Assembly (NCBI GenBank): GCA_973895155.1
Contig: OZ316892.1
Coordinates: 3,847,223 to 3,911,222 of the forward strand
From: Marsupella aquatica
Taxonomy: Eukaryota > Plantae > Marchantiophyta
Reading direction: 5' to 3'
Length of the DNA: 64,000 nt
The position numbers and the translations under genes are program-made. Below are positions 21,730 through 44,700 of the stretch, piece by piece; positions within the stretch are counted from its first letter, which is position 1, and the number at the start of each line of letters is the position of its first letter. Under the pieces are notes generated by a model. That model was given only the letters and a program-made list of their open reading frames with translations. It did not search any database and was not told the origin of the DNA.

Positions 21730-22993
21730 ATGACCAACCTCGAAAAATTAACTTTCCCTGCACTAGAAATAGATGGCGGCAACTACCTAGAATGGTCCAT
21801 GAACCTCAAAGAAAACCTAACCTCGCTAACCCTACTCCCAGCGATAGGGATGGCCCAACCTATACTAGCTGGCGAACCCCAACCAAACCCGTTAACTAAA
21901 GCCAATGAATCGAAGGCCCTAGTATTCCTGAGACGCCACATCCATAGATTCCTACAGAGACAATACATGCACCTTTCGACCCCTCGGGAACTATGGACAG
22001 CCCTACAGACCCGATTCGACCACCAGAAACTGGTCGAACTACCTAAAGCCAGGCAAGACTGGCTAAACCTATGAGTCCAGGACTTTACCTCTATTTCAGT
22101 CTACAATAGCGAACTCTTTAGAATAACCTCAACCCTTGCACTATGTGGCGAGCCAGTTACGGACAAGGATCTGCTAGAGAAGACCTTGTCGACATTTCAT
22201 TCATCGAATGTGTGGCTATCAACACAGTATCGAAACATGAAGTTTGGGCAATACTCCGAGCTCATAGCCCACCTTCTAGTCACAGAGAGAAACCAAGAAC
22301 TCCTTTTAGTTAACTCTAGAAAACGTCCCGCGGGCACACTGCCCTCAAGATCACAGAGTGAAACATATCTTACCGACACCGCTGAACCCTCCACATCAAG
22401 GTAGGGCATTAAGTGCAGTAGGAATGGCAACCATAGAAACAACCCCAACAGGGGGAGTTTCTTTAACCAACGCCCACAACACAATTTCAGACGGTCCTTT
22501 AGTGGACGTGGAGGACGCGGAGGACGTGGAGGACGCGATGGACGCGGCGGACGCGGAGGACGAGGTGGACGCGGCGGTGGTAGAACATATAACAACAACC
22601 GTAGAAATGAATGGTCACAATCCCGACCACAACGAGAACGCCCAAAATGCCATGCATGCGGCATGACCAACCACCTAGCCAGAAACTGTAGAATCCCGCA
22701 ACACCTTAAAGAGCTATACCAACGATCCCTCAGGGACGGACAAACCTCTAGGGCACCACCCCGTGAAACCCACGGGGCGTTTATGGAGTCAAGCGACCCA
22801 TTCCAAGACTTTTCAGACCTACCTGCCCAACCCGAGGCACACTTAGTGGCAAGTAGCTCCACTACACCATATTTAAATAGCCCAAGCACATGTATATCGA
22901 CAGTGCGACCACGCACACTATCCTCAGGGATAGGCACCTTTTCCACAAGATTACACCCTCACGTAGATCCCTGACCACTATAAATGGCCCTAG
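21730..22993 (+). pseudogene. Copia gag and N-terminal half of the aspartic protease
   Basis: Gag with in-frame stops at 22072 and 22402, an RGG repeat (~22500-22580) and CCHC knuckle CHACGMTNHLARNC. Frameshift near 22895 into DSATTHTIL; cut by the CACTA at 22994. Confidence 0.9.
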
Positions 22994-23848
22994 CACTAGA
23001 AGAATCCGAGGTGAACTGAGACCGCAATATATGACTCATTTTGGCTCATGTGACTTCATTGTGACTCAACGTGACTTGACCCACGCTGTGACCCTTGGAG
23101 TTGCAAAAGTTGAGACCAAAAAATGGAAGTCACTATTGATACTGGGCTTTGCAACTTGCTTGATACCCATTTGTGACTGATCTGTGACTTTATTGTGGAG
23201 TCTAGCCTTGTTTCGACGTGACTGCAATATGACTTCAGCGAGTCATATCGTAAGTCACATACATGACTTACCCGCATTCAACAACGACTAGCGTGTGACT
23301 ATTTAGTGTCACAAGAGAGACCAATGGAGACCCTGGCCCGCGTCACACAACAGAACCATTTGGGACTCTATATACTCATGTTTATAACTAATAAGGTTCA
23401 CATGCAAGTTATAACCATGACTAATGAACACAGAGGGACAGTTCATAAGGAGAGAGAGCACTCGACATTACAATACATAGAAACCTGATGTTCTAACTTT
23501 AGAAATATAACACATTGAATACAAGAAATGAACATAGCATGAATGACATCCACATGAAACAAAGCATCATATAAGCAGATCCTACATAAAACATTCATAA
23601 GAATTAAACACAATCACAATCTTGCTAAAAAATGAAGATCATTTGAATTCCAATGGAATAGTTTACAATGTGATCAATGTAATTTAGACAAAACAGGAAC
23701 TCATAATTGATGATTGTAGGATGAGATAACTGAAAGCACATGCATGATACTATGAATCTCCAAGAGGACATGATTCTTGTACTGCTTCTTGACATCTAAA
23801 ATCTACATAACATGACTCACACTACAAACGAATAATGGCATGACATTG

Positions 23849-26800
23849 TTATGGATCCTCTATGAACTTGCTTGGCCATAATACCAAAGAACCTGCAGCA
23901 TCTCCAAGTGTCTTTTGAGGAGGATCATCATTTGTGTTTGGAATGGGAAGGACAGCTTTAGGTTTCACTAGTAATGTGACTAACACTACTGAATAACCTG
24001 GGGGTATCCTCTTGCCATGGAACGTTGTGGAACCAACCTGCACTCTGGCAAATCCTACTCGTGTTCCACTCTCATCAATAGCTAACAAGCCACTTTGTCC
24101 CTCAGCATTAGGTGCTTTCCCCACTTCCACCTTAGATCTTTCTGCCAGCACTGTTCTTGGAGGTTTGTATGAAACCTTTGACGTGGCTCTGCTCCCACCA
24201 GCAGACTTGCTTCGTGTGCGCATGCTTCCTCTCTTCACAGTAGTGAAGCTAGGCTCAGTAGGTTCCTCTGTTAGGACTGTCACAGTAGCAGTTTCATCAC
24301 CTGGGAGTGTCATACCAACTAACTCTTTGGTTGGATTTATCTCAACAAGAGGCACACCTGTCATTGAGAATGATACATTCTGCAAATCATTTATCTCTGC
24401 AATGGAGTCAAGATCTACATAGCATGAATCTGGCTCAATGGTATCATTGTCATGCTTGCTGATATCCTCATTTGCCCCAACATTGATATCATCCACTCCC
24501 TTGCCAATGTCATCCTCATCCAAACATGGTTGACTGCCCTCTGTCAAACAAGTTGCTTGTACAGACTGCAACTTTGTTGCCTCTAAATTACAGCGAGTAT
24601 TTGCCAGGTTCTCATACTTCTTCTCTGTAGCACCTGTCTTATTCTCTATGGACACAACAACCACAATATATGTTACTGAAAATAACACATTCAACAAACA
24701 ATGTCAATTCAAACTATACATTTAATAATCATATCCCACACAGTTGTAAAGGCCTTACCTTCAAGCCTACATGTCGTTGGCATGCCAGAAGAGTGCATCG
24801 ACTTTGCCACCTCAAGTGGTGATGGTGGAACTCCTGCAGAATTGGAATCAATTTTATCTCTCACCGACACAACAGCTTCCATTAATGTCTTGAAGTTCAC
24901 ATGGAACAAGTCAGTCAATGAATTCAAACGTTCATTGATCTCTGGAAGACATGTTTCGACAGCCTTCAAACGACCACTTATCTCTGTAAGTGAAGATCCA
25001 CCTCCCTACATGACACAGGGGTATAGGTTCAATCACTCCATATGAAATGTTGGGCAATATATGCACAATCAATGTTATATACAGTGTACACCTGAAATTC
25101 AACGCAGGTCATTCAATTACCAATCAGAACTCATATAACTTACATGCTTGGAGGATTCAGATGCACCCTCTTGAGCCCGGGTGTTCACAATTTCAGCCCT
25201 CAACTCTTCTTTTGAAGGGCTTTGCCCCAATTGGGCTTTCTGCACATGCATGGCAAACACAAGTTATCGATCAATATTCAGGGAACGTACACTAAAAAAC
25301 AAAGTTTACATGTATGGGTTTACACTAAAAAATAGTACATAGTGTAGCATAAATTACATAGCTAGGCCATTCATTCTTACCAAACGTTTAGCTGTCGGTG
25401 CAGTGCCGGTCCTTCCTGTCAGATTAGGGTTCTGAACACTCAACCTGGCCTCGGTCATCTGTGAACTCTTCTTTTTTGAAGCATCTGTTACAAAATAAGC
25501 TACTAACCTTGCCCACACTTTATCATCACAACTGGCTGGTGGAGGCATATCTGTCTTCTCCCCACCTTCCTTCCAAGCCTTATGCATTCTCCACCTCTCT
25601 TGCTTGATAATTTTACCTGCTGTACTCTCTAGGCAACCTATGTCCACGCCATCATCACTGCCCACATAATTCCATTTGGCAGCAACATTTTCACATACAG
25701 TCTTCCAATCTTTTGGATGCTGTTTTTTAAAATTAATAACACTCACATCTAACCAACGCAATACTTCAGCTTTCAAATCAGCATGCCATCGGTTCTTGCG
25801 AGGACACTCAGCATCCACCCATTGTCTCTCATTCAACTTTACGTCCCCTTTCTTTGTCACCTCCCCTCGTGCACTGCTCTCGGTAGTACTGGGCGTTGTA
25901 TTGGCCACCCCTTCATTCACCCTACCTGGGGTTCTGAAGCCACCTGGGAAAATACAATGCCATTCATGCTTGAGAACTACATATAGCAGAATGGATGACG
26001 GCAACATTCAATGCTTCACTTCAAGAAAAATTCTTCAAACATACATACCTGTAGCTTTGCCTGTAGATGCCTGTGCAGGGACTGCACTCTGAAATTGTTG
26101 CGACCCTGGACCACCTGTCCAGCCTAGTACAGGGGCCGGATGATGTCACTTTCTAGGTATGTGTGTGCAAACATATGTACTGAAAACTAAGTACAAACTG
26201 TAGGAAAACAACTGAACATTCACCGACATACCTGTCCCCCTTCCGTGCTGCATCTGCATAGGGGCATTAGTGAATACTTGAGTCGATGGTTCGACTGTCC
26301 AACCTGCACACATACATTTTCTATCATTATACATGTGCAGAGTCCCCCCCACGTGAATGGACTCCACATATAATGAGTTCTTCCATTGCTGACAAGATCA
26401 GACATTACCTGCTCCTCTTCCAGCGTTTGTAGGTACTGAATTTTGATATCCCTGCCAATTACCTTCACCACCTTCCCAACCTTGTTCATTCCACGACCCA
26501 CCACCATCCTCCCAACCTGGTTCAACCCATGTCTGTCCTTGTGGACATTGGAACTGATCATTACTAGCATTTGCCCAATCAGGTTGGGCAGAATCTGCAT
26601 GCAATGGCAGGTGGACAGAATTTCATGTTGTCTGAATCCAATACATCCCAAACAATGTCAAAAATTGATATGCAGTCTGAAATTCAGGAGTGCCATGCCT
26701 TCACAAAGAACTGGCATATAGATATATACTCACATCCCCATGGTTGAGGTGGACGTCCATACCCACGAGATTGTGGGTTTGGACCTGCTCTGCCTCTACC

Positions 26801-27560
26801 ACGGGCATAACCTAGAGCTTGCCCCCTGCCATAGTATTGGGCACCAGCCTGGGATCTACCACTACTACCACCTCGCCAACCTTGATCAGAGGTCAGCCCC
26901 CCTGCTGGTATGGTGCATGCACAGGCTTCGAAGGCAAAACAGAACTGGCAGGACGTTGCATCACATCACCAACTACAATGTCAGGAACTAAGCAAGGTAC
27001 ATATGTGTAGTACTGAACATATGAAACCTCTAAACAAGAGTTTTTAACTCAAAACCTTGTTGGGAAAACTACTTACATGTTTCTTTTGGGGCTGCTCTGC
27101 AATGTATTCATCTTCATAACCCCCATCCTCATCCATTTCCTCTGGAAAATACTCATCATCTGCATCTTCTTGTCTAGTGTCTGCACCCACCTGTGCAGCA
27201 TCAATGTCATCTCCACATTCTGCCATTGTAGGTACGACCTTCTTGCTCAACCTGTCACTCCGATGCACAGGCCCAGAGATAGTGCTGGTCACCCTTCTTG
27301 CGTACTCCTTTTGTTTCTTTGAAAATGTTGTGGCTCTGCGACATTCCAATATGAGAATACAGTCACAATTTCAGTGCCACATTGAACTATTCATGTCACA
27401 CAAACTCAGCGGAGGGGTGTAGTTGAGAATCGTTCCCTTACAATTTAGCCACATCCTTTTCCAGATCCAGTTCTGCAATTTTGGCTTTCACGTATGCTCG
27501 TTGTTCCATAGCTTTCCTTTCATACTCACACATCTCTGTGTCACTCTGTTCCATCCTACT
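23849..27560 (-). CDS. TnpA-like / Ptta-type second CACTA protein, multi-exon (exon model uncertain)
   Basis: 25354-26007 shows the Ptta/En-Spm-like pattern (QERWRMHKAW..PPASCDDKVWARLVAYF..KKSSQM.EAR..NPNLTGRTG). The C-terminus FHGKRIPPGYSVVLV..LPIP..TLGDAAGSLVLWP resembles the Tnp1/DUF8039-type domain. Several GT-AG exons lie between. Confidence 0.7.
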
Positions 27561-27710
27561 GGACCACAAAAACATGTCATCTATGGTCACCCCGTATAAC
27601 ACAATGCAACCACAATCACCAGGCATCCATCCATACATCTGTGTTGCTTCAGAATTACTTTATTACACATCCTTCCCCTCACTAATGTCCATGCAAAAAA
27701 TTCACATTAC

Positions 27711-30700
27711 TCATGGCACAGGCACACTGTTGGCATCTGCATCTCTGAATTCGCCTCCTTCAGCAAATACATCTACCCTTGTCACAGGAATGAAGTCCCC
27801 GCTATCATGAACTACAGGCACTTGGTCTGAACGCCGACGATCAAAGGCACTATGAGAGTGTAAATGAAACTCAAGGTTTGATCCTTCCATCCGACGTTGC
27901 CTGGCCTGTTTATGACACACTACACGCCAACCTGGGGAGTCTTCCACATCCAGGAAGAAAGCTTGCTCCACCTGACTAGGAAACACAAATGGCTCAGACC
28001 ATTCGGGCAATTTCCCTCTGAAATTGGCCAGCAAGAAACCGTCGTTGTCTCTCTTCATGGTAGCCCTGTTACCAAGCCAATCCTGCCGCACCCATGAACC
28101 TTTCATAAGAATCACAGGACTGGACACCGCCCCATAGTCCAAAGCCCATATGTCAACTAATTCTCCCACATATCCCATCTCCATCCAGGCCCTGTCGTGA
28201 TTGTGGCTCTGTTGCTCAAATACAGTGATGAGCCCGTAGTCATTCGTCACCCTGTAGGCACTGTCACCATCCTTCACTCGGAAGTGATTTCCATATGCTC
28301 TCATCCGTTTGTAAGTCTTCACTTTCAGGCTAGGGGCATTAGACAGTAGGTAAACATCTGCATCCATGTCTGGGTGGGTCTCGTGATGCTCTCTAATTGC
28401 CACTCTGATCCACTCCATGAAACCTGGAAAAGTTGTTCCTGCAGTGGGATGGGCCGCCTTCAATGACTCATACTCCCTGAACGAACAACCACACAGCATT
28501 AGCTTGGGTAAACATGAACAGGCTGAAGGAGAAAACCACACGAACACAACATTTAAGCTCATGAACTGGATTATAGCACATGTATGCACTCACTGTATCC
28601 AGGGTTCCATCACCACAGTGTTGTGCAATACAAAGTCATGTGCCAAGTCTCTCATAGATATGGTCAGGTTCTTTGTGGTTGCAGCCCCTTCCAGTACTTC
28701 ACCTATCACCCCTTCCTCCTCATCAGAATTCCACACCCTGGTCTTCACATGCTCATATTGTGCTATGTATTCGGTCAGAAATCCCAGAGTCTCATCCTTG
28801 ATGTAACCTTTAGCCATGCTTGCTTCAGGTTTGTAATATGTTCTCACGTGACCTTTGAGTAGCTTCATGTACCGTTCCAAAGGGTACAACCAACGAGCAC
28901 TCACAGGCCCAAATTGGTGTAGCTCTTCCACAACATGGACAAGTAGGTGGGTCATGACATCAAAAAATGCGGGAGGAAAATAAATCTCCAGGTCACACAG
29001 CACCTGAGCGACATCTTCTGTCAGTTGTGGGAAGTGTGTTTCATCCCAAACCTTCACACAAATACGACGAAACACATCACTGAGTCGCATGATCACAGTA
29101 CGAACAGGCTTCTGCAACAGGCCCCTCAGGCATAAAGGCAACACATGTTGCATCAACATATGGTAGTCATGGCTTTTCATACTACCAAGCTTTCTAGTCA
29201 TGATATGCTTCTTGAAAGCACTGCCATAGTTTGAAGGAACCTTCAAAGAACTCAACCTCTGCACAAATAGTTCCCACTCTGTGTCTGTCAGAACATAGGG
29301 CGCTTGGTACTTCAAGAGCACATCAGCTCTGTGGGCATGTGGCCTCAACCAAAGATGGGGTTTCATTCCCCTCTGTTCAAGATCCAATCTCACTGAACCA
29401 GTGTCTTTCTCTCCACACAAGAATCTGAGTAGACTCTCACAAATATTCTTTTCAATGTGCATAACATCAATGTTATGTTTGCTTGGCTCAAACTCCTGCA
29501 TCGTTGCAATGCAAAAGCGTCAGGAAATGCCTCAAGTTTAGTCTCTCTCTTCGAAATGAATGCACATGCTCTGAACCAAAACATGTATCCCAATTAGCAT
29601 CAACTCCAAGAGGCTTACCCTCCAGTACTTGAGCTCCAAGTCCAATATGCTCAGTCTTTTTACACCATATCGCTTTATTGGATCACTCACTCCATCTTCC
29701 CTGCCCCCTCGTTTGATATTGTCATCCCTCAGTGCTCCCCACTGCCTGATCTCCTCTTTGGTCACTCGTGCCGGGGGTCCACGTTGCTCAATCTCATTGC
29801 CAAAGTGTGCAATCAGTGCCTGTCTTTCTCTGTAAGGGTGATCTGCCTTCAGAAAATGATGATGGCCCATGTATATCACTTTCTGCAGGGCTCTGGAGTA
29901 CTCACTGGTGACATTGCGCCCACATATAGTACAAGCACAATATCCTTTTGTTGTTTGGCCTGATATCATCCCATGGGCTGGGTAGTCAGCTATAGTCAGA
30001 ATGACAATGGCTCTAAGGATGAATGGGTTTAACCTCCCAAGCCTCTGTAGGACATCATATGTGAGAACTCCTTCCTCCCAAAGCTTTCTCAATTCCTCCA
30101 CTAGGGGAGCCAGAAACACATCTATGTTGGCAGATACAGCACTGTCTGGCCCTGGTATCAGTAGGACCATCAGAACAAAAAATCGCTTTATAGTCATCCA
30201 AGGACGAAGGTTATAATTCAAAATAGTTACAGGCCAGCACGAAAATTTGTTGTTCTTGTCTCCAAATGGGTTTACCCCATCCAATGACAGCCCAAGTCTG
30301 ACATTCCTCGGCTCAGCAGCAAATTCGGGATACATCTCATCTATGAGTTTCCATTGCCTTGAATCTGCAGCATGTCGTTGTAGCCCATCATCACTTTTCT
30401 TGTCAGTTGCCCAAGTCATCATCTCCGAGATGGCACGGCTTCTGAACATCCGCTGAAGTCTGGGAATGAGTGGAAAATGACGAAGTACCTTGGCGGGAAC
30501 CATAGACTTTCCTGAGTTCCGATACCTGTGCTTCATACACTTAGGGCATGTCAACGATTCTTTATACTCCTTTCTGAAAAGAACATGCCCATCAGGACAG
30601 GCATGGATCGAATCATAGTTCAATCCAAGATTAGATATGCATCTTTTTGCCTCGTACATGTTCTTGGGCAAAATATTACCATCTGGTAGCACAGTTGTTC

Positions 30701-31442
30701 GCAAGAATGCCAACAACTCAGAAACCAAAATGTTGGGGACATTGTGGTTGCCGCAAATGTTCAGGAACATGATGACAAATCCCAGTTTAGAACATTTGCT
30801 ACCGGGGTACAAAGACTTCCTGCCTTCCTGTATTTGCAGGGGAGAGCCAAACATCCCATCATGCCCAGGGGTTTCCTGCCCTATCTCAAACTCATCAAGA
30901 GGCTCTTCGACAGGGGGCACACTTGCATCTGCAGCCGTATCCTCTTCATTGTCCAGCCCATCATGAAATGCATCCAAGTCTTGGAAGATGTCTCTCACCA
31001 TCTCTTCCACATGAATTCCTTCGTCACGTGGTGCTGCCTGAGCACCATCCCGTTGGAGAGCTGACAACCCACAGAGACCAGCTACAACATTTTCAAATGC
31101 ACCAGGCAGAACCTCACTTGCCCGTCTTGCAGCATTGGCAGCATCAAATTCTAACCTCCACTCCTCGTCGGAAGAATCTTCCTCTGCAGGATCATTCCAA
31201 ACTCGATGTCGTGGATCTCTTCCATGAACCGCGATATGCCGCCAAACCTCATTCAGACCCCTGGTACGGGATCCTTGGCAGATTGCACAAGGACATCTCA
31301 TCCTATTGGCTCCTGAAAGTCTGGTTCGTAACCTTTCACGCTGCCAAAGCTTATTATCATGGCGTGATATCCTTGTGGGATGATGCAAAGGCAGTGCCTG
31401 TGCCCTGGGCTGGGTCTGGGGAGGGTGGTGACCAGGGTGCAT
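27711..31442 (-). CDS. CACTA TnpD/Tnp2 transposase, apparently intact
   Basis: Exons ~31442-29619, 29495-28594, 28476-27711 join in phase. Motifs MRCPCAIC..H (transposase-associated domain), IHACPDGHVLF, RNVRLGLSLDGVNPF, TIADYPAHGMISG, HNIDVMHIEKN, MKSHDYH, FFDVMTHLLVH, RWLYPLER, EPFVFPSQVEQAFF. Confidence 0.93.
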
Positions 31443-31875
31443 TGTAACAGGCTGGGAGCTCTGCAGTCATGGACAGCAGTGAACAAGGATGCCTAATGGT
31501 GGTATTTGTGTTCCATATATCCCTGACTGTATCTGCCAAAAGAGTTAACATAACGTGTACTAAATTCTCACAAACCCTAAACCACCCCAAAAGAAAAAAA
31601 CAGGTTCGCAAGTAGTGTACCTATTGTCAAGTGAATGACACAAAATTCCTAAATGTTGGAGGGTGTCACCACCTCCTCCGCTGTCCTCAAATGTACCGCC
31701 TCTGCATGTACGTTTACAGTGACACCCCCAGGCAGCAGGAAACAACAATCCGCCAACAGTAAAATAAGCCCTACTGCCACCAACCATAACAAGGTACATT
31801 AGTTCAAAGATCACATTTATTTCAATGATCTGATTTATACAAAAAAACTTGTGTCCAAACTGATGCTACTACTCC

Positions 31876-32748
31876 TCACTCTGATTCAGAATCGCTAATG
31901 ACCCATTCCTCACTTGTTGTCTCATAGTCCTCTCTGTAAGGATCCTGACCCTTCCGTGGCCAGGCCTCAAAAAGATCATAGTCCATTGGGTTTTGACGCT
32001 TCCCAGCTGCTACTGATTCCACAAGCCAAGCATATGAAACCACAAACACATTATGGGACATGACATAAAAGCGAATGTCTCCCTTCCCAAACTTGCGGCA
32101 GGCTTTGGGATATGACTTAGTAATGACATGAGTGGTGTCCTCTGTTATATTCTCCTCCACTGTCCCACCTAGGTCAAGCACTGTGGACTTGTACACTTTG
32201 CACTTAACCTCTCCAATTCCCGCCTCCACAAATACCATGCTCAGCCCTTTCAGAATGGGGGTTGGTTGCTTCGTCTCCTCAGCCAACATACACTTCAGCC
32301 TTGTAGAGCTCTGTCCTTTGTTGAGTACAGGTCCATATTGGAGATCAGCAAGCCGTGCCTTTGCTTCCCAGACTTCTTGTTCAGCCCAAGCTGATGCAGA
32401 AGCTTCTTCATCCTCCCACAACTCATATTGCTCAGTATCCTGTACAATCTTATGTGCTATGGAATCTGTGATCCAAGAGGCCTCAACTACTTTTAGGCCT
32501 TGCTTAGTAATTGCAGAATTCATGTAGGACCATGACCACTTCTTTATCACTGATAGCCATGTCCCTGCAACAACATGTGTAGTCTCTGGAGTGATGTCCT
32601 GAACTACAGTGCCATGGAGCTCAGAGAATCGTTTCTGTACAGTTGGCCAATGCACTTTGGTCAACCCATGCTGGCCATGGACCAAAATCGCTCTGACCCC
32701 TGTAAACACTGCTGGGTGGTCACACTTTCTACGTTTACCAGGCTCCAT
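31876..32748 (-). CDS. Tandem BRCT-domain protein (DNA polymerase lambda-like BRCT), CACTA cargo
   Basis: Uninterrupted 290-aa ORF from ATG 32748 (MEPGKRRK). Two repeats: VFTGVRAILV..LHGTVVQDITPETTHVV..VVEASWITDSI and ILKGLSMVFVEAGI..LGGTVEENITEDTTHVI..KFGK..VSYAWLVESVAAG. These show the BRCT Gly-Gly, THV and WxxxS hallmarks. Confidence 0.82.
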   Translation of the reverse strand: MEPGKRRKCDHPAVFTGVRAILVHGQHGLTKVHWPTVQKRFSELHGTVVQDITPETTHVVAGTWLSVIKKWSWSYMNSAITKQGLKVVEASWITDSIAHKIVQDTEQYELWEDEEASASAWAEQEVWEAKARLADLQYGPVLNKGQSSTRLKCMLAEETKQPTPILKGLSMVFVEAGIGEVKCKVYKSTVLDLGGTVEENITEDTTHVITKSYPKACRKFGKGDIRFYVMSHNVFVVSYAWLVESVAAGKRQNPMDYDLFEAWPRKGQDPYREDYETTSEEWVISDSESE

Positions 32749-33339
32749 GTACACACACTCTACGTGATGACAGTGAATTTGGAAGAATGGGTTCACCTGA
32801 CAATACAAGGACAACAAAATTCCTGCTTTTTGAGTTGATCTGGCCCACTGGTGCTCAAGTCCGATTTTGATAGGTACAAGGGATATGTGAACAATACGTA
32901 CTAGGCACCTGCACGGATGCAGGACATTGTTTGAATATATACTACAAAATCCATATCCGTGGTGAAATGAAGTGCAACCAACTTGTCATGGCACATACAT
33001 ATTTTGTTGTAAAGGAGGATACATTCAATGACAAACTTATAGGGCAATTTGATTAATTGCATGCCTGATAATTTATACGCTTACAACTTAGAAGTCCTGT
33101 TTTAATTTAGCAGTCTGATGAAAGTGTTTATGAAAATGACCACTCAGCCTAAATACTTCCAAGAAGGCTTGTAAGGATAAGTTTGTATAGGCATGTACCC
33201 AGCCACTGACGCCAGAGCACAAGATAAGTGCTGCCTATATAAACTCGCCTACCCAACTCCTTTTCAAAATTGGAATCTCTGCAATCTCAAAAAATAGTAC
33301 ATCCACATCAGGTGCACTGTGCATGTACAATGTTCAGCT

Positions 33340-34020
33340 TCACAGCCAAGATATGTGATCTCTCACAGGAGTGCGCGAGGTAGGATCAATGGCATGGCGA
33401 TGACAATAAAATATCCATCGATCAACACCATGTGCAGAGTGATCATAGATTTCTCTGTCACAAGCATAACCCTCTGCTTGATGATCTTTCAGGCAATGAT
33501 AGTGCCACATAGTGGGACACCTAGCACAGTGGACTATGTCAGTCCAGTAGTCATCATCATGCTCACCACATGCCTTGCACCTATGAAGTGGGCAAGCTGT
33601 GGCATGAGCAGGCAAACACTCAAAACAGAAAAATCTCACACAAAAACGGTCTGGACATTTCCTAACATTTGCTGCAGCATCAACAGAGCCCTCATAGGAC
33701 CCCAACTTCCCACACTGTGCACACTTAGCCTGCTTCTCCAAACAATCAGTGCACATCCAGTCTCCCTGGTGTGTTGACGGGAGGCCCACCCCTGGACAGT
33801 TGTTTTCTGCAGCAAGGTCAGACTCCGGGTTGAGGTGGAAATGCCTCATGCAAGGGCCCTCACAAATGACCAGGCCCCCACCATCGTCACAAATGGCACA
33901 ACAATGAGCTGCCTTCTGGAAAATCTGACTTGCAGAGAAGTTAGTAGCATCTGCCCCAAGTACACCTGTGTTTCTCACCTCTGTCACACGCTTTTTGGCT
34001 TGAATTTTAGGCCGTGCCAT
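33340..34020 (-). CDS. Stand-alone EDM2/NSD-type tandem PHD-finger protein, CACTA cargo
   Basis: Intronless 226-aa ORF: CAICDDGGGLVICEGPCMRHFH..WMCTDC..KCAQCGKLGS..CPLHRCKAC..CARCPTMWHYHCL..IFYCHRHAID..TPVRDHI. Collinear with the PHD cassette of plant EDM2 as recalled (CAICDNGG..CEG.C.RSFH..CPLHKC..TPVRDHV). Confidence 0.85.
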   Translation of the reverse strand: MARPKIQAKKRVTEVRNTGVLGADATNFSASQIFQKAAHCCAICDDGGGLVICEGPCMRHFHLNPESDLAAENNCPGVGLPSTHQGDWMCTDCLEKQAKCAQCGKLGSYEGSVDAAANVRKCPDRFCVRFFCFECLPAHATACPLHRCKACGEHDDDYWTDIVHCARCPTMWHYHCLKDHQAEGYACDREIYDHSAHGVDRWIFYCHRHAIDPTSRTPVRDHISWL

Positions 34021-34031
34021 GCCTGCGCATG

Positions 34032-34175
34032 AGATAGACTCTACAATTTAGCAGACTGTACAGAAAGTAAAATATATTTAGCATTTAAGGTACAAAGGCA
34101 TTTAGATAGACTCTACAATTTAGCAGACTGCACAGAAAGTAAAATATATTTAGCATTTAAGGTACAAAGGCATTT
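34032..34175. repeat. 72-bp tandem duplication just upstream of the PHD ORF
   Basis: AGATAGACTCTACAATTTAGC...AAGGCATTT starts at 34032 and at 34104, with one mismatch. Confidence 0.92.
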
Positions 34176-34790
34176 GCTACTGCAATGAATTGGAATGGCC
34201 ACACAAGGATGCAGAGCACACATACTTTTGGTATGTTGAGCCCACACACAAAACTGATCCCCTAATACAATTTCTCCACCAACACCTCAATTTTAATTGT
34301 GGCTATGATTCACCAAAGGAGATCTGCAACAACATTTCATGCATTTGAATCACATACAATAGTCGTGACATGTAAAACAGGCATTCTTCGAAGAGGATTG
34401 GTATGAAGCAGTGTCATAAGGGTTGAAATTTATACATCCTAAATAGGTTATGATAGTGGCTGAGACAAATAAGTGAGGCATAAATCATTTTGCATATTAT
34501 CACATGGCCCATTAATTCATTCAACGTTGCAATGTTCACCAGGTTAAAGCAGTCATGAAAGCAGTCTTTCAATAGAGACTTTTATGCGAGTTTGCTAGCC
34601 TCTTAAATTAGGATATTTTGCTTAGTGCAGGCATAATAGGATATAAGTTATGTACTGTTGACCCTAAACCCTGGACCCAAAATTGCTCATACATCAAAAT
34701 TTTAAGTAAATATCCTCTGTGTTGAAGTCAGAGTGTTAAGCTATAGGTCAATGGTATCTGGTCTGTGCATGCGGTGTGACAAGTGGTCCT

Positions 34791-35240
34791 CTAGAGCATG
34801 TGATCCAAACATGTGTAGACACCAAAGTCACCGGTGGTGGGGTCTGGGAGGGCAGGACAAGTGACATCACCAGGCACACTGCAGGATGGCGAGTGGTTCC
34901 AGATGATACATTGTGCTCTGTGCAAAAATCGGCATCCAAGAGAACGGTCATCCAATTCTGGGCCAGAAGCCCTACAGGCAGGACAGTCATATTGGCAACT
35001 GTGTACACACCCTTGGCACCTAATTTGTGGCGGGTCATGTACAAGAGACACAAATACCAAGGATGTCGGGAAGGGTACTGAAGCAGGTAGAGGCCGGCTG
35101 TAGTTGTTCCTGGAAACAACAGGGTACTCAAAGTACCATGCAGACTGGGCTGGAAGGATCCCAAGTCTGACATACTCAAGGCGCAACATCTCTGCCTTGC
35201 GTGCAAGTCGCACATGTTCAGCGTTGCGGGTCCTCACCAT
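34791..35240 (-). CDS. Cys/His-rich hypothetical protein (possible zinc finger), CACTA cargo
   Basis: 149-aa ATG-initiated ORF co-oriented with the other CACTA genes; CQGCVHSCQYDCPAC..CRFLHRAQC..C..C..YTCLDH. Family not recognised. Confidence 0.5.
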   Translation of the reverse strand: MVRTRNAEHVRLARKAEMLRLEYVRLGILPAQSAWYFEYPVVSRNNYSRPLPASVPFPTSLVFVSLVHDPPQIRCQGCVHSCQYDCPACRASGPELDDRSLGCRFLHRAQCIIWNHSPSCSVPGDVTCPALPDPTTGDFGVYTCLDHML

Positions 35241-36248
35241 AAGTGTTGCTTTCGTTGTGATGTCCTCTGTTCACGTCCTTTGATGAGCAAGGTGAGCAGG
35301 AGGTCGACTTGCCTCGCCAACAGCAACCACCTAAACTAATCAGTTCCCACTCATTGTCTTGGTTCCAACTACAGGTCATAGTATACACATAGCATGAAAC
35401 GTGCATAGTACATATTTGATTCTGAGTTTATGAGTTTCCTAAGACAAAGAGCTTGGTGATAAACCCATATTCTCGACGGACATGTATATCAATCATATTA
35501 AACTCCTGTTTTTTCATCCAGAAAGACCGAAAGTCTCACCTTGCAGGTTGCAGCAGAGAGAAAATTCACTGGTTGTCGTGTTGTGCAAGTGAACCTCCAC
35601 TGATGCCCCGGTGTAGCCCCTCAGATGCAGGTGACACTTACCAACTCCCAAGTTGCCTGGTCTAACAGAAAATGCTTATATCTTCAGAACTTTATAGAGC
35701 AAGTACATGATCACATACTTCTGGATCTATTCATATTTGGAACTCTTGCCAACTACAACTCCCATTATGCACAAGCTCACATCAACAGAGAAAGATACAG
35801 AATGCATACTTACTATGGCTCTAAGCACCTTCACTACCTTGTTGAACCCAGTCCTGAAGTCTTTTCAGCGTGTTTGTTGTGCTGTCTCCTTTGGCACCCA
35901 ACACCTTAGTCCTTGATGTAACAGAATGCGATTTTACAAGTTAGATGCTTTGGAACCTTCTATGGTCTTAGCTGAATTGATGTCATCGTAAGTGGTGAAA
36001 GACAAGGAAGACGAAAGCTGGTTGAAGAGCTGTGGACAACACACTAGCATGAAGTGCTTCAACCAATCCACTGCCAAACGGAACTCTTACACAGTCACAT
36101 TCTTTTAGTAAACAAAAACTCAGTCAAACTTCAGAATCAAAGTACAGACTCTGAAGGACCAAAGGAGGATGTTGTGAGTTTCTCTGTTGTTTAATGTGTT
36201 ACCCTTCTAGTTTCAAAGTTAGCAAATGCTGAATAATGTGTCTACCAG

Positions 36249-36591
36249 ATCTTCGAAAAGAAGCCCACCACAATTAAGAACTTCGGTATCTGGGTCCACG
36301 TATCAGAGTCGTACAGGTTATCACAACATGTACAAGGAATATTGTGATACCACAAGAAACGGAGCTGCAGAGCAGATGTATGATGAGATGGCTTCTTGTT
36401 ATAGAGTTCGGTTCCCTTGCATCCAGATCATGAAGACTACGACAGTCCCTGTCTCTCTGTGCAAGCGAGAAAGTACCAAGCAGTTCCATGATTCAAAGAT
36501 CAAGTTCCCCTTGACGTACTGCAAGATTCAACCTCCATTGCGAAAGCTAAAGAAGACTTACAAGGCCACCAAGCCCAACACAATTGTTTGA
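36249..36591 (+). pseudogene. RPL18A: Captured last exon of 60S ribosomal protein L18a (eL20)
   Basis: After a CAG acceptor: [15 protein letters not shown](frameshift)[51 protein letters not shown]. Several Arg>Cys changes; a 3'UTR-like tail follows. Confidence 0.92.
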
Positions 36592-38721
36592 GTAGTGCGG
36601 GTGCAGGTTCCCAATTTTGAGACAATTTGGCTCATTTTATGTCCCGAGGGAATCCTGGAGTTTATGTATTGAGTTTCTAGGTGAAGATGCTTAATATAAG
36701 GAAATTCAATTATCACTTCGTTCCCAACTTCTATTAATTGAAAATACACAAGCTGGAAGCAAGAAGACAAGCCACAATCTAGCATCTTAGCCAAACACAA
36801 TCGTCCCGACAAAGCAAAACTCAGCTGGACAGAAGTCACTCGGATCCACAAAAAATTGAAGATTCACCTCCAAGCCGGAGGCTGATCACTTCAGTACAGC
36901 AGCTTCTAGACGGAACAAACTCTGCTCAGCCCCACAGAAACACAAATGTTAAGGCTCCAAGTCAGAGCTCACAAACAGAAACTCAGATAAATAACATTCA
37001 AAATCTGTCCAGGTTTGTGCAAAGTGTACATATTCATTCTTCTGGAATGAACACGCAATGCATACATCACCTAGACACAGTCATTATAAATCATTGGGCG
37101 ATTGGGGACCACTAAGCAGGTGTGTTCCTATTTCGAGGCTACAGGAAAGGATAGAGTGACACCAAACTCAAGAGTACACCAAAAGAAAAACAGCAAGAAC
37201 CAAAGTCAATCATGTGTGGATAAACTGCACATGGGAAGTTCCCCTGAAGAAGCATCAGTTGCTAACATTGTCACCCGAACCACACCTAGTTTATGACCTC
37301 AATGTCTTCAGCCTCAATATCCAATCCTCAGCCCCCTGGTGCTTCCGTGTTTGTTCTGAAAATTTCTGTGATGAAATAATTATTCAATACATTCAATAGG
37401 AGTTCAGACAATCTGAAGAGGACTTTGGACTTGAATGGGGGACAGCGTGGCCATATAGTTATCCTTGTGGCCTTCAGCTACGTGTCTCACGCTGAATTTC
37501 ACTTTCCAGTTTCGAGAGTTGTGAAGGTCTAGTTTTAGTAACTTCCTCCTGACTCGACTTGGGAGCATTCTCTGTATTTGCTAGCTTGTAGTTAGCTTTG
37601 ACTCCTTTCAGCTTAGTTGACGACCCTCCTGAGATATTAACAATTAATATCAAAGGCATTGAAACAAAGCGGGTGGCAGTTTCAGTATCTCAGGCAATGC
37701 AAAATTAATCCATACTTAATCAGCCCTGGCCACACATTCCTTCAAAGCCCCTCATACTAGCAAGCAGGTCTGGCCTGTGAATCTTGTAGTGCTTAACGAT
37801 ACAAAGCCTTCCCAAGTACCAATTCAAAAGTAGCAGAAATAGATCGAAAGCTAGTTCCGATGATAGCTCCCAAAAGCTTTCCTCAGCCCGATTCCTATGC
37901 ACATCAGAGGAGCTCAAACCATTTAGAAATGAGATCACAGATTACTCTTGACAATCTCAAAAATGCCACAACCTAAGCACTGACAGCTCCGTCCCCCCAT
38001 TCTAATTTCTCCGACAAGTTTGCCTTAAAGCACATCCACTCGCAGTTCAAGCAGATTCAGAATCATCATAGACAATAGAGTGTTCTACCATAGCCCACGG
38101 TAGGTCCACGGCCATCGTAACAAACGCTCCACCCCCGGGGCTTATTAGTATTGCTCACTTTTAAGAAGGGCAGTTTTCGCAAAAGCAGTCTAATTGCCTA
38201 GACTGCACTAGAAAAGTTGGAGGCAATATCACAACGGAGCATTCTGCGTCTAAGGGAGAGCGACGCCGTTCAGGAGATAGATGCGCGAGAGAGTGAAGAT
38301 GGTGGGGAGTGGAAGACGGGTTGGGACTGGACCCTTGGTGCCGGTGGGTAATATGTGGGGTTTCAATGAACAATGGGCCAGTTTGAGGAGGATTAAGAAG
38401 CGCGCACCCCACGTTCTTGTGTGGTGGTTGGGTGGGGTTTTGTTTGATAGAAGAAGAAATCACCATTCTCTTATGGAAGAAAGAAAATCGTAGGAAACAG
38501 TGGGCGGGAGAACAAGGCATGTAATAGAGAACAACGAGGCATGTAATAGAGTACTTGCGGTTACTCTAATGGTGCACAAACACTCACCTTTGTCTTCCGC
38601 TTTGTCTGCTGTGGCCAACAAATCCCAGAGCGCTGCCGAGCTTGGTGGTTGCTTGATGGTTGAAAGTGCGTAGCTCACGTCCCTACCTCAATGTCCAACT
38701 CAATGTGGGATGCAACAACTT

Positions 38722-38790
38722 CTCTTGGTCGCATCTCCTCTTGGTCGCATCTCCTCTTGGTTGCATCTCCTCCTTGTCGCAGCTCCTCTT
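38722..38790. repeat. 16-bp tandem repeat, ~4 copies
   Basis: TCTTGGTCGCATCTCC and variants. Confidence 0.75.
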
Positions 38791-41786
38791 GGGGTTCACA
38801 GCTAGCGCGCAGCAGCGCTCGATTGTTGACAATGCGCAGCTGAGCTAGGAGAAGAACTGAATGACTGTGGCTGCTCTTCTCTGCAGTCCAAGCACCCGGC
38901 TGGCAGAATGCTACAACACCTGAAAGAAGCGCACTTTCAGCTGCATGGCCGGGACTAGTAGAAGCCGTTGACGGTGAAGGGCATTCTCGGTTTGGACCTC
39001 CTCTCTCCAACCCCTTCTAACCCGCACCTCCAAAGTTGTTTCGGGAGTTGATTAGCAATAACGTCGCTCCTATGCCAAAGGCACCAAGAACCAAGCCAAA
39101 AGAAAGGGTTTAGCAAAGGGAGAGCGATGTAGTGTGCACTGATCAATGACTCAAAGTTGACGTTGAACCCTCCATTGCGCTAGCTATTGGCGATTGCCAC
39201 ACAGAGAGCAGCCGTATGTAGCAAACTGTAATGCAGATACTCCCGTCAAAGGTCGATGCGTCACACTCAGCTTTAGAGGAAGGATAAACGATTGAGCAGC
39301 ATTGCATTGTGCAAAAATGTTGGAGAAGCACATTGCTTCCAGGCCCGAGCTCACCTCCTTCCCCTTTCACCACTTCGCAGCTCCTCCAAGAGACATTCAC
39401 TCAAGGGCACATCACGCAGTTGCTTGCCCTCCTCAGAAGCTCAACACCACAGCCACCAAAGTTGTCAGCTCCCACTGCAACTGAACAGGTCACTACCAAA
39501 AGCCCGCTCCCACCGCAGCTGAACAAGTGAGCGACACAAGAGTGTAGGACCTCCGCCAAGCCCAGGGCAGCAGCTCAATGAAACTCAATTTGCAACTCGT
39601 CTCACTCTCGCTCTTGCTGCAAAGAAAAAAAAGCGCAGGTCAAACTCCTTTGTGGCCTCAGTCCCCACCGCTTTCCCCAAGCTATGGACAACTACTAGCA
39701 GCTTGCGCTCACAGCATGACATCCAGGTCTTTAGCCAACTGCACACTGGAAACCGAGAGAAGTGAGCGCAGTCACGCAAGGCCAAAAAAGACCAAAGTTG
39801 AGCCAAAGCAAAACTTTACTAATGTATTTACAGTCAAGCATGAGGGCAATCAGGTAAGCAGAAGACCACGCATTCCCGCAAAGAGTTGTAGGTTCTCGTC
39901 ACTTCCTCGCCTCTGTATAGAAGGTCGATCGTTGTATCTCGGGTACCCAATGACAGTGGAGATGAATGCAAATAGGCCTCACCAATCGCCAGTCATCCGC
40001 GATAAACCTCCCGACAACCTTGCTCCTATACACCTTAGCACCCGCATTGTCACCACAAGAAAGACGAATGTAAGATTTAGGGCCCACCTAAACCCTATAG
40101 TGAGATTGCAGTCGACAATGGGTCATATAGCAAAGGTCGAAGCTCCAAGCCCTACGCAATGACATGAAATCCCACCTCCAAAAGCGCTAAATGTATTGAC
40201 TGAGTGCGATCAGGTGCAAGAGTCGAGAGCAACTGAGGAAAAGTGCATTATCGGGCGCAAAGTGTTTGGCCTTGGATTCCCTTGCAGAAACGTGAAGGAA
40301 AACCCTGGTGGTAGCCGTCGACACTTTGTGCAATTTTCCTTTACAAAATCCGTTTACCCTAAACATTGAGTCGACTGGAAGGACTCGTTCATAGGCATTC
40401 TGCAAGCACCTAACACATTTAGACGTAAGTTCACAGTTAGGATTAAACGGTAACTAAGACCAAGGGTGCATGCATTTATTTTTTTGGGGGGGGCTTTTAG
40501 TTGGGTATTTTGGGTATAGTCATTGGGTTAGATAAATATCCTAAGTCACCCAGATGGCAAAAAACAACACCTACCCTTAAACTCACCCTCCTCAAGCATA
40601 AACCCTCTGAAAACCCATTGGACATTTGGAGTCATTGGCAAAATAGGGTTAAATGGATGAAGAATGGACCGGGGGGGATGGATGCCGACGATCCAATGGT
40701 CCCTAAACCCCCATCCCCTTAACATGCAACCCCCGACCCTTGACATCAAACCCCCCCTAAACCCCCTTTAGTGAAAACCCAGCCACCCCCTAGCCTTGAC
40801 ATATAAATTGCCCCGGTTTCTACTAGTGTGTGAAAACTTTCCCGCTCATGAAACAACAAGACTCTCACTTTGCGGGCGCACTCTCTCTTTCTCCAAGTCC
40901 CTCCACAAAAGCTTTTGGCAGTCAAAAGTTTAGGGCAAAAGCTATTGCCAGTTGTATCAACTTGCAATTGCGCAACATGGTTCATTGGAAGAGGGCTTCC
41001 GATAGAGAAATTGATGCAACGGCATTGCATTGTGCACTTAAGGAAAAAGAGGTCCTAAATTGGGCCCTTCAATATTCCCATATGAAGGGGGTTCCATTTG
41101 ATATTGGCTAATTATGGGGTATATATGCAGAGCAAATTTTTAAAATGAGTTAGTGGATGAAGTGAGTTTTAATATGTGTGTGAGCAGTATGTGACAAGTA
41201 CCACTAATTGGTTGTGGTGACTTTTTTAAGGTAACTATGTATGTAGAGTATTAGGGTTTAGGGTGCATCATTATTTTGGGGGGCATGGCACAAATTTTCA
41301 CACCTTTTTGAACTCAGTTGCGGCCGTGTACATGAATGTTAACTTAAATTTGGTTGGTTCTTGTCTAGCTAGAATCACAAATTTGCCCTACTTACCTAAA
41401 CTTCAATTAGGGTAAAAATGTCATGTATACTTTCTTACAGGGGAACAATAAAGAGCAACTCAGTGATGGTTAAAGCAAAGGGAGGTAACTATATATAATT
41501 GCATGACATAATGTGATTAATATGATGGATCCAAAATCATATGTATTGGGCAAGGAAATCATGTAAGTCATGGTCACTTATATAACTTCAATATACTTGC
41601 CTTAACTCAGTTACAGAAGCAACTTTCCCAATAGTTAAATACATGACTTCCCAGAACTTCACCAAAAGTGAGTCAAGAAGATGTAACAAAGATGACACCC
41701 TAAACCTTGGAGTCACTTATTTTCAAAGGTCTCACACAAGTCATGTAAGGTTGGGTCTCAGAATGGCTCGGTTTCTTCTAGTGTAG

Positions 41787-44700
41787 CCAAATAGAAGAAG
41801 GCTTCGGCCCAGCTTCCATTAGACTACCGCAGGGTACAGCGATTCACATAGAATCTGCCATTTTCGCCCCGAACGCAACCCGTAATCTCCTAAGTTTTAG
41901 CGATATACGAGCAAATGGACTACATGTCCAGACGGGTGACACAAGAGACCAGGAAGTGATACACTTGGTTGAAAATACCCCTACGGGGAAAATCATTAAA
42001 GAAACACTTTTCTCGTATCCTTGCGGGTTTTATGTAACACATATTGAATGCCTGCATAACAATGCCCAAACAAGTGAATTGCCCGCGCTTTGGCATGCAC
42101 GCCTCAGCCACCCCGGCCAATCAATGCTAACCAAAATAATTAAGAATTTAAGTGGCATTCCAATCAATACACGCCACATCCCAGCTAGCACCCCATGCAC
42201 TGCATGCTCACGCGGCAAATTAATAACAAGGCCCACGGCATCAAAATTGCCAACCAACATACCCAAATTCTTGGAAATAATCCACGCCGATGTTTGCGGG
42301 CCAATTAACCCACCGAGCGGACGATTCCGCTACTTTATGGTATTAATCGACGCATCAACTAAATGGTCAAATGTGACACTACTTTCAACGAGGAACATGG
42401 TTATACCTCGTATTTTGGCGCAATCCTGCGCGTGAAAGCACAATTCCCCGACCACCCCATTAAGACACTAAGGGTAGACAATGCAGGGGAATTCACATCC
42501 GAAACATTTGATGACTTTTGCACATCACTTGGCATAGACGTACAATATCCTGTACCTCACGTGCATTTTCAGAACGGATTAGCTGAAGCGGTCATTAAAC
42601 GCCTTCAGTTAATTGCACGCCCATTACTAATGCAGTCAAAACTCCCCGTCTCAGCATGGGGACACGCCATATTACAGGCTAATGCATTAATCCAATACCG
42701 CCCATCGGCCTTTAATACCTATAGCCCATACCAAATTGCTAATGGTATTAAACCTGACCTATCACATCTTCGTTCATTTGGATGTCAAGTAATGGTCCCC
42801 ATTACTCCACCCAAACGAACCAAGATGGGACCCCAACGACAGTTGGGGATATACATCGGATTCGACTCTCCGTCCATAATCCGATATATAGAGCCTACAA
42901 CTGGCGATGTTTTTAAATCTAGATTCCTAGATTGCCATTTTGACGAACATGTTTATCCACAGTTAGTAACCCCTGAACACCCACAACCACCTTTGGAGTG
43001 GGAAAGACACTCGCCATTTTGGCAAGACCTTAGAACGAATCAAGGGGAGAAAGAAGTTCAAAGAATTCTGCAACTCCACAAGATTGTGGAAGAACTTCCT
43101 GACGCTTTCGTTGACACATCACAACTTACCCGCTCACATATTCCAGCTGCGAGAGCATCTGCCCGCATCGAATTATCAAATGAGCCAGCAAGTACATCCC
43201 AACCTCGTGCAAAACGAGGTAGACCCTTGGGATCAAAAGATAAACAACCACGAAGGCGTGGTTCATCTATACCACCTTCACCTGATGTCGATCATACCGA
43301 ATCCACAACTCATGAAGAAATTTCTATCCACTACGCACACACCGGTACGATGTGGGATAGAAATACTACTTCCATAGATGATGCTTTTGCATTATATCAC
43401 TGATGATACACCCGAACCAATATCACTGATGATACACCCGAACCAATATCTATCTTAGAATGCCAAAACAGACCAGATTGGCCCGAATGGCAAAAAGCTA
43501 TAAATGGAGAATTAGATTCCCTACTCAGCAGACACACTTTTGGCCCAGTCGAGCCAACACCGCAAGACGTACACCTAATTGGCTACAAGTGGACATTTGT
43601 CCGAAAAAGAAATGATAAAGGCCAAGTTGTACGCTACAAAGCACGTCTGGTAGGGAAAGGATTTACACAACAACCGGAAATTCATTACGATGAAACCTAT
43701 TCACCGGTTATGGATAGCACAACATTCCGATACCTTATCGAATTTGCCATTTTCCATCAATTACAGATGCGACAACTGGATGTCGCAACCGCATATCTAT
43801 ATGGAACTTTAGACACTTGTCTATACATGCGATCACCCCCCGAGTTGGAGCAACATCGCCGAGCTTTGGCTCAAGGCGCCAAATCGCATATTCCATATTT
43901 ACATAAGATTATAACACAATTATCTCAAGTTACACCTCATGTGTCATCTACACATGTAACTCATAATAACGACACTGCTGTGTCAACCGTACGGAATACT
44001 CGCCGCGGACTAGCTATCCGTGTGTTGAAGGCATTATATGGCCTGAAACAAAGTGGCAGAGTATGGTATCAAAGATTTACTGATGAAATGATTGCCATGG
44101 GTTTTTCCCATGATGCCATTACACCATGTTTATTTATTAAACATGTGAATGATGAATATGTCATCGTTTCCATTTATGTTGATGACTTAAATATATTTGG
44201 GACACCCCAATTGACAGAAGATACTATTACTAGTCTTAAATCCACATTTGAGATGAAAGACCTTGGACATACAAACTTTTGCTTAGGCTTACAACTAGAG
44301 ATCCTACCCATTGGCATGATGCTCCATCAGACAACACAAACGGAAAAGATCCTAAAATAGTTCAATATGAACCTAGCACACCCATTGACGTCACCAATGG
44401 TTGTACGTTCATTAGAAAACAACACTGATGTTTTTCGCAAGCGCGAAGAACATGAACCCATATTAGGACCAGAAACTCCATATCTTTCTGCGATAGGAGC
44501 ATTAATGTACCTAGCAAATCACACCAGACCAGACATTGCATTTGCAGTTAACTTACTAGCCAGACATAGTGCAACTCCCACAGCCAGACACTGGAACGGA
44601 GTTAAGCATGTATTTAGATATCTACGTGAAACCACCGATACCGGGTTATTTTACCCATTCGGTGCAAACCATGAGCTCATAGGATACGCGGATGCCGGAT

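Follow-up and report, generated by a model that had tools for sequence, protein, structure and literature searches.

DNA transposons are known to have co-opted chromatin regulators of their hosts. VANC of the VANDAL Mutator elements is derived from MAIN and the barrel of TnpA from NDX (PMC13547354), and KIU (Ulp1) genes are likewise reported from transposons (PMC13317346). A 2019 review describes three anti-silencing systems encoded by transposons (PMC6719617), to which TnpA has since been added as a demonstrated sequence-specific anti-silencing regulator (bioRxiv 10.64898/2026.08.24.746577); these systems act via DNA motifs or small RNAs. The rice CACTA element with miR820 also bears a counter-silencing factor, but this is a microRNA directed against DRM2 and not a protein (PMC6719617). 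The locus analysed here lies in a 64,000-nucleotide stretch of the liverwort Marsupella aquatica (contig OZ316892.1, positions 3,847,223 to 3,911,222; hereafter the window, whose first letter is position 1). It is a CACTA element of 18,790 bp (22994..41783, genes on the (-) strand) in which three open single-frame open reading frames (ORFs) lie upstream of the TnpD transposase gene on the same strand; they code for a stand-alone EDM2-type PHD cassette ('mini-EDM2'), a stand-alone tandem-BRCT protein and a Cys-rich protein. On the evidence collected from the sequence, these ORFs are most likely old, selected accessory genes that would serve the element for docking, both to chromatin and to factors of DNA repair. 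The stand-alone EDM2 cassette and the BRCT gene in a CACTA element appear to be what is new here: as an earlier note on this DNA had supposed, the literature search, judged by titles and the openings of abstracts, found no CACTA element with PHD and BRCT genes; it covered neither subscription journals nor Repbase nor a preprint's supplementary data for 962 Spm proteins, where such domains could occur. The survey of those 962 Repbase Spm proteins mentions accessory domains without naming them, and the term 'PHD' is absent from the main text of that preprint (bioRxiv 10.64898/2026.08.24.746577).

The structure of the element agrees with that of CACTA/En-Spm transposons. Its terminal inverted repeats (TIRs), at 22994..23023 ((+) strand, 3' end of the gene cassette) and 41754..41783 ((-) strand, 5' end of the cassette), comprise 30 nt each and are 80% complementary, with the CACTA-type start CACTAGAAGAA exact at either end. 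They are flanked by a 3-bp target-site duplication (TSD), TAG, at 22991..22993 on the (+) strand and again at 41784-41786. An empty site exists: contigs from three of the four public runs first compared (X1, X2 and X5) jump from 22990 to 41784, and the gap they skip, 18,793 nt, equals the element plus one TSD copy. These contigs, together with protein domains, delineate the coding region of a Copia-type long terminal repeat retrotransposon (21691..45200, (+) strand) split by the insertion, with the gag zinc knuckle before the CACTA element and the pre-integrase domain and pol frames after it. The CACTA element moved as a single unit. Within 23050-23295 are found 9 of its 18 GTGACT sites, with a weaker cluster at the opposite end, and subterminal repeats are thus present; the cluster of short GTGAC-type motifs at 23030..23300 (no strand assigned) likely represents putative TnpA binding sites. 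The gene order on the (-) strand is Cys-rich, PHD, BRCT, TnpD, TnpA-like. TnpD (27711..31442) has three exons (31442-29619, 29495-28594, 28476-27711) and, once two GT-AG introns are removed, is open over 1163 residues, with Pfam matches to Transposase_21, DUF4218 and DUF4216. The ends, the 3-bp TSD, TnpD, the subterminal motif clusters and probably also the putative TnpA-like gene are shared with maize Spm and Arabidopsis Spm1/Spm3 (bioRxiv 10.64898/2026.08.24.746577), compared to which the three stand-alone genes upstream of TnpD are extra. The earlier note had proposed just this architecture, a CACTA element with an intact TnpD and three same-strand single-frame ORFs upstream of it, and the TIRs, TSD, empty site and open frames bear it out.

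EDM2 is described as binding chromatin marked by dimethylated lysine 9 of histone H3 (H3K9me2) and as promoting full-length transcripts through heterochromatin (PMC7529245), where it suppresses premature polyadenylation (PMC7529245, PMC10241880, PMC3632883); its domain list includes an N-terminal RFD and a C-terminal methyltransferase-like (ELP) domain (PMC7529245). The 226-residue ORF at 33340..34020 ((-) strand) matches NSD-type PHD models and, by profile search, proteins named EDM2, and its nearest solved structures are NSD2/NSD3 (E 1e-10). Mini-EDM2 has the same composite PHD cassette with C-terminal motif as EDM2, EDM2-like proteins and NSD2/NSD3. The named host proteins have 690-1630 residues, whereas mini-EDM2 comprises about 220 residues without the RFD and the C-terminal domain; in the 226-residue ORF, Pfam detected PHD models alone, neither RFD nor ELP, while two of the host proteins named EDM2 did give an RFD match. 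When 1.84 billion representative sequences were searched with a profile, 564 matches were returned, with short stand-alone proteins at the top of the list, followed by EDM2-named proteins and liverwort and lycophyte EDM2-like proteins. Five of 123 candidates were retained as near-full-length relatives, at 82, 75, 53, 37 and 38% identity.

A midpoint-rooted tree of the cassette, built from 74 of 77 sequences (three short or split matches were dropped) that represent the top part of 150 listed matches, places 14 stand-alone PHD proteins, including that of the window, in one clade with a support of 0.999, apart from host EDM2; with such rooting, long branches may contribute to the clade. Its members share derived features, namely a deletion of ~20 residues in the loop of the second finger, a His-to-Cys ligand swap and a short basic N-terminus where EDM2 has an acidic lead-in, and the complete members end directly after the last motif of the cassette. 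Eight of the 14 proteins keep 25 of the 26 Cys/His columns of EDM2 despite identities of 29-80% elsewhere, and in an alignment of six sequences 18 of 22 cysteines are invariant, as compared to 52 of the 226 residues overall; the zinc ligands typical of the EDM2 family are thus present in the ORF of the window. The best identity to host-type EDM2 is 38%, in a comparison outside which lay the EDM2 of the own genome. The clade represents one old capture of the EDM2 reader that was trimmed to a free module, which is no longer an EDM2. The 16 mini-PHD clusters that were looked up contain no NCBI-annotated member, and a search of viral contigs with the PHD and BRCT alignments found no relative. The tree holds a further group, separate from full-length EDM2, of EDM2-like proteins of 690-770 residues that end soon after the PHD cassette (P0017, P0020 and P0022, from liverworts where the source is named). 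In the DNA of the window, a 72-bp tandem duplication (34032-34175, 99% identical), which may be private to few copies, lies upstream of the PHD gene and stops 12 nt short of its start codon.

Long-term constraint on the PHD gene is apparent from comparison with an intronless mini-EDM2 gene (529-1200 of locus L001, strand not given), the one locus obtained from 136 pattern matches in a metagenome scan, whose product is 41-44% identical to that of the window. Over 193 codons, synonymous differences are saturated (pS 0.77), nonsynonymous ones are fewer (pN 0.42), and bootstrapping gives a dN/dS ratio of at most 0.35; third positions are 32% identical compared with 59-60% at the others. The observed/expected CpG ratio of the L001 ORF is 0.34, and the locus looks as a dead transposon copy would.

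The idea that the ORFs were captured passively and recently, as in Pack-CACTA elements, and are open merely through youth has to be weighed against this evidence, and also against the part of the element for which it does apply. An antisense 3' part of host RPL18a lies at about 36249..36591 on the (+) strand, with 74 of 94 residues (79%) identical to the best plant structure chain, a similarity that marks the host as a plant, and a 1-nt frameshift near 36300. In contrast to the three open ORFs, it is best understood as passive, decayed cargo, just as the earlier note had it. At the frameshift (position 36296), a base is absent from a single contig in X2 and from a single one in X5, so there are copies or host genes that do not match this copy at that place. 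The 5' arm (37400..40828, no strand assigned) is variable, with a contig depth below that of the core, and holds no protein family in the frames scanned. Since contigs break or leave at 40829 and an inner TIR-like end is found at 40813..40828 ((-) strand; 15 of its first 16 nt match the outer TIR), the 5' arm is a composite; the contig depth drops stepwise along 37400-41783, which together with the exit of contigs argues that the gene core is constant in the family while the 5' ends vary from member to member. We also weighed a nested element with its end at 40828, but the sites listed included no matching second end bearing an identical 3-bp flank; hence the designation as composite. The RPL18a fragment and the composite end recall Pack-CACTA (PMC13317346), from which the element differs by its open 1163-residue transposase and its three old conserved ORFs. 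Only the RPL18a fragment qualifies as a recent host fragment. The PHD ORF, at no more than 38% identity to host EDM2, does not, and the near-identity to host genes that would betray a passive origin was thus looked for and not seen among the host-type proteins compared. With derived features common to 14 relatives, saturated synonymous sites and clean starts and stops at matching places in the relatives, recent passive capture is largely refuted and appears very improbable for the three ORFs.

The BRCT ORF (31876..32748, (-) strand, 290 residues) has two BRCT stretches (Pfam E 3e-13), and two of 1332 candidates were retained as relatives, at 59% and 54% identity. Its repeats resemble each other (24% identity, E 2e-11), which hints at one repeat having duplicated. 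Among solved structures, Rtt107 (E 0.00097), BRCA1 (0.0026) and LIG4 (0.0038) are tied as nearest matches, with Pol lambda at 1.1, and all Atlas matches of the ORF scored below 0.9; a structure predicted from a three-row alignment had a mean confidence (pLDDT) of 35 and was not used for fold search. Docking of repair factors by the BRCT protein appears to be a fair inference from these matches. The third ORF (34791..35240, (-) strand, 149 residues) is a Cys/Pro-rich orphan with two relatives among 23 candidates (56% and 55% identity), both of which keep seven of its ten cysteines. It has no Pfam family and no usable Atlas match, and its predicted model (pLDDT 59) gave no Foldseek match at E 0.001, a best Z of 4.1 in a further fold search and no evidence of a new fold. 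We predict that it binds metal and acts as a small cofactor within one module with the other two proteins. The 161-residue frame that overlaps it (34748-35233) is not taken to be the Cys-rich gene: it contains the indels at 34752 and 34775, and the 149-residue frame, to which the homologue search was confined, has relatives with the same start.

The three ORFs are not confined to this copy, as public runs and databases alike show. The element is present wholly or partly in nine of eleven listed public runs from seven studies with six coded organism labels, of which one may be the source sample; X8 and X9, with thin coverage mainly from 151-nt pieces, are little informative. Contig depth is a rough guide and not a copy number. 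By this guide, near-identical contigs in X1 have like depth over TnpD (1554-1782) and at the BRCT gene's 5' end (1641), and with diverged pieces in X1 and X2 at a depth of 23-43, near-identical copies in the family probably number in the tens, as a rough estimate. For diverged families, linkage is indicated indirectly. The joints of a second subfamily in X1 are about equally deep in TnpD (1912-1949) and in the spacer between the PHD and Cys-rich genes (1958), and its PHD piece in X2 is 13% diverged and gap-free. Deep contigs in X7 cover the coding parts of PHD and TnpD, not the spacers, again with depth as a rough measure.

Evidence for selection on the three ORFs is drawn from several sources. 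Open relatives of similar length are found for all three, at 37-82% identity overall, and start and end at about the same places as the ORFs of the window. In a neutral simulation without indels, pairs at ~54% identity stayed open in none of 600 trials for BRCT, in 0.3% for PHD and in 3.8% for the Cys-rich ORF. Among the 12 indels listed out of 20 in the ORF region, none falls in the ORFs, which make up 51% of that region; among the 12 listed out of 104 for the whole element, none falls in the three ORFs or the TnpD exons, and one lies in RPL18a. The observed/expected CpG ratios of the ORFs (0.23-0.39) are at the level of TnpA (0.28) and TnpD (0.38), consistent with a long stay in methylated transposon DNA; the ratios of the Copia element and of a helicase gene in the window are 0.90 and 0.86. 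None of the ORFs matched a VANC/MAIN-type Pfam family at E 0.1, and NCBIfam matched none of nine proteins. We consider it very probable that the three ORFs are selected genes, whatever their function, and on the evidence from their sequences they are understood not to be passive cargo.

A number of observations nonetheless count against this reading, some of them bearing on selection in the element and others on the functions assigned to the modules. The homologue searches retained near-full-length proteins only and favour survivors; several homologues are truncated or apparently frameshifted, low-depth relic contigs do have gaps within the ORFs, and the L001 PHD gene has an in-frame stop at codon 22. 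Of 18 codons that change within the three ORFs, 5 do so synonymously (1 of 9 for the PHD ORF alone; both among the 40 substitutions listed of 204), in line with the neutral share of 0.21-0.29, and no change creates a stop. This sample cannot show selection because TnpD, too, gives a neutral-looking share (2 of 8 among those listed), and it is probably dominated by young, copy-private changes. The concern that dN/dS might lie near 1 is therefore answered in part: long-term constraint on the PHD gene holds (at most 0.35 against L001), whereas the recent changes are neutral-like. Much the same applies to the proposal of the earlier note that these are functional accessory genes and not passive captures, which came through most of the tests that could have refuted it, although not with the help of recent substitutions. 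Lastly, no diverged relative was seen adjoining a transposase; the sole DNA context, the 1.9 kb of L001, holds the PHD gene only, with no transposase match and no other match to the element.

The missing physical link to a transposase in diverged relatives, along with the neutral-looking recent substitutions, could suggest that the ORFs stem from small host genes of a poorly sampled lineage, that selection arose in the host, and that the element carries them by chance or for camouflage, a use of captured genes for which there is precedent in print (PMC13317346). However, CpG depletion in the ORFs is at the level of the transposase genes and is also seen in the L001 ORF, and many of their relatives are broken in the manner of transposon copies. 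Deep contigs under another organism label cover the coding parts only, the indels listed avoid the ORFs within the family, and the clusters looked up lack any NCBI-annotated member. An origin of the selection in the host thus appears improbable, if less so than recent passive capture, and selection within the transposon lineage remains the preferred explanation.

Regarding the functions of the modules, the TnpA-like gene (23849..27226, (-) strand) also needs consideration. Its nine-exon GT-AG model is open over 770-776 residues and matches Transposase_24 weakly (E 1.6e-4, under the curated Pfam cut-off). The exons are predicted from sequence, and the version that contains glycine-tryptophan (GW/WG) motifs is one of several open models; for most starts, the automatic splice search picked another frame through the GW exon. 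In the GW-containing version, the N-terminal region (26049..26848, (-) strand) is of low complexity and rich in G, Q, P and W (21% Gly and 6% Trp across 154 residues), with an RGG-like stretch and four to five GW/WG motifs within ~90 residues that sit in a degenerate DNA repeat of 22-28 nt (D2/D5). At position 26956, nearly all contigs in four runs carry a letter different from this copy; the alternative gives AG and could be a splice acceptor, adding one GW unit to the G-rich exon. The C-terminal 90 residues of the model (23849-24121) presumably resemble the small barrel that ends plant TnpA proteins, and the Pfam scan returned no match for them. TnpA-like proteins are said in two papers to be restricted to flowering plants, which would matter if the host, as the assignment of the window to a liverwort implies, is not one. 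WG/GW platforms are described as G/W-rich, degenerately repeated regions (PMC4476159; PMC5204349), and the predicted N-terminus of the TnpA-like protein is alike in both respects; GW motifs in transposon proteins were not found in the literature at the level of titles and listings.

The earlier note had gone further and proposed manipulation of heterochromatin reading, of non-homologous end joining (NHEJ) and, via a GW hook in TnpA, of Argonaute silencing, all three by the one element. All modules are indeed present, the G/W-rich region with its degenerate repeats is like that of WG/GW platforms (PMC4476159), and LIG4 is among the BRCT matches. The GW part is the weakest: the motifs exist, but their count is not above composition shuffles (P 0.25-0.77), and one or two of them arise solely from modelled splice junctions. 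A functional Argonaute hook in TnpA would be possible yet less likely on these grounds. As for NHEJ, the tandem BRCT was confirmed, but the pathway was not singled out, with LIG4 scoring like BRCA1 and Rtt107; the donor is ambiguous, and a specific role in NHEJ seems doubtful. Aligned to BRCA1 at the positions that we take to form its phosphate pocket, repeat 1 has His for Ser and misses the Lys, such that the BRCA1-type Ser/Thr-Gly and Thr-X-Lys pocket is not found in it; repeat 2 has the Lys. Directly ahead of its first zinc ligand, the PHD protein has a basic patch where that of EDM2 is acidic. The acidic patch serves histone-tail specificity, which may differ in mini-EDM2. Manipulation of all three systems together is accordingly regarded as quite improbable, and the preferred reading is limited to docking on chromatin and on repair factors.

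The presence, openness, ancestry and long-term constraint of the genes are read from the data, whereas their expression, binding and effect are what we infer. From its EDM2 ancestry, heterochromatin reading by the PHD protein is plausible. Mini-EDM2 could be a nuclear chromatin binder by virtue of its basic N-terminus and serve as adaptor or competitor at H3K9me2-type chromatin; on the silenced chromatin of the element itself, it might enable that the long intron-containing TnpD/TnpA transcripts are made, or else that the transposase reaches silenced copies or ends. We hold the chances of such a role to be about even. The BRCT protein may be a scaffold through which break-repair factors of the host reach the breaks made at excision and insertion, and whichever the pathway, this proposal is as well balanced between for and against. 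The Cys-rich protein would be a small metal-binding cofactor in the same module. Taken as a whole, an intact CACTA element with three old conserved accessory genes, likely docking modules that keep it expressed and mobile in methylated heterochromatin, is the account we find somewhat better than evenly supported by sequence. A more far-reaching version, in which a CACTA lineage assembled a host-derived toolkit of a free EDM2-type reader, a duplicated BRCT scaffold, an orphan metal-binding cofactor and an Argonaute-binding TnpA tail, is put forward tentatively; in it, the EDM2-type reader would permit transcription of the element in spite of the silencing marks that it bears, and the BRCT protein would recruit break repair.

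Selected genes might, alternatively, serve transposition as such and not anti-silencing, with the PHD protein tethering the transpososome to safe-haven chromatin (e.g., other transposons) and the BRCT protein handling the breaks. It would accord with the location of this copy inside a Copia element, with the PHD protein being without effector domain and the EDM2 acidic patch gone, and with the genes being co-oriented directly upstream of TnpD. A single insertion site, however, says nothing on preference, and the donor EDM2 works in the processing of heterochromatin transcripts. Service to transposition alone is therefore considered rather unlikely, and docking that sustains expression as well as mobility is preferred. 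Parallels exist among the known systems. VANC and KIU exemplify DNA-transposon accessory genes, VANC captured from a host chromatin regulator (MAIN), that are kept by selection (PMC13547354, PMC13317346, PMC6719617); superfamily and donor are different, however, and while VANC binds DNA motifs and demethylates, the donor here is a histone-reader cassette known from sequence. The TnpA barrel from NDX (PMC13547354) likewise has an En/Spm element reusing a domain of a host heterochromatin regulator, but fused inside TnpA, whereas the EDM2 cassette constitutes a separate intronless gene.

In the remainder of the window, AAA_11/UPF1-type helicase genes occur in three similar copies (2372-5095, 51934-52998 and 61305-63504), which are a tandem host gene array invaded by transposons. 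A Helitron (12893-18084), whose Helitron_like_N and PIF1 helicase domains are spread over several frames, is preceded by a GC-rich (64-70%), low-complexity repeated stretch at 10100-12000.

Lastly, the findings have importance in suggesting how a transposon may deal with its own silencing. If the genes are selected, the free-standing EDM2 reader module represents a different anti-silencing route, acting at the histone mark itself. If the toolkit proposal were true, no histone-mark reader encoded by a transposon would have been shown to counter silencing in plants before this one. Mini-EDM2 offers a small single-exon reagent for the expression of an element while H3K9-methylated, and for the action of the EDM2 cassette without the other domains. 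The BRCT gene would provide a handle on how cut-and-paste elements steer the repair of their own breaks.

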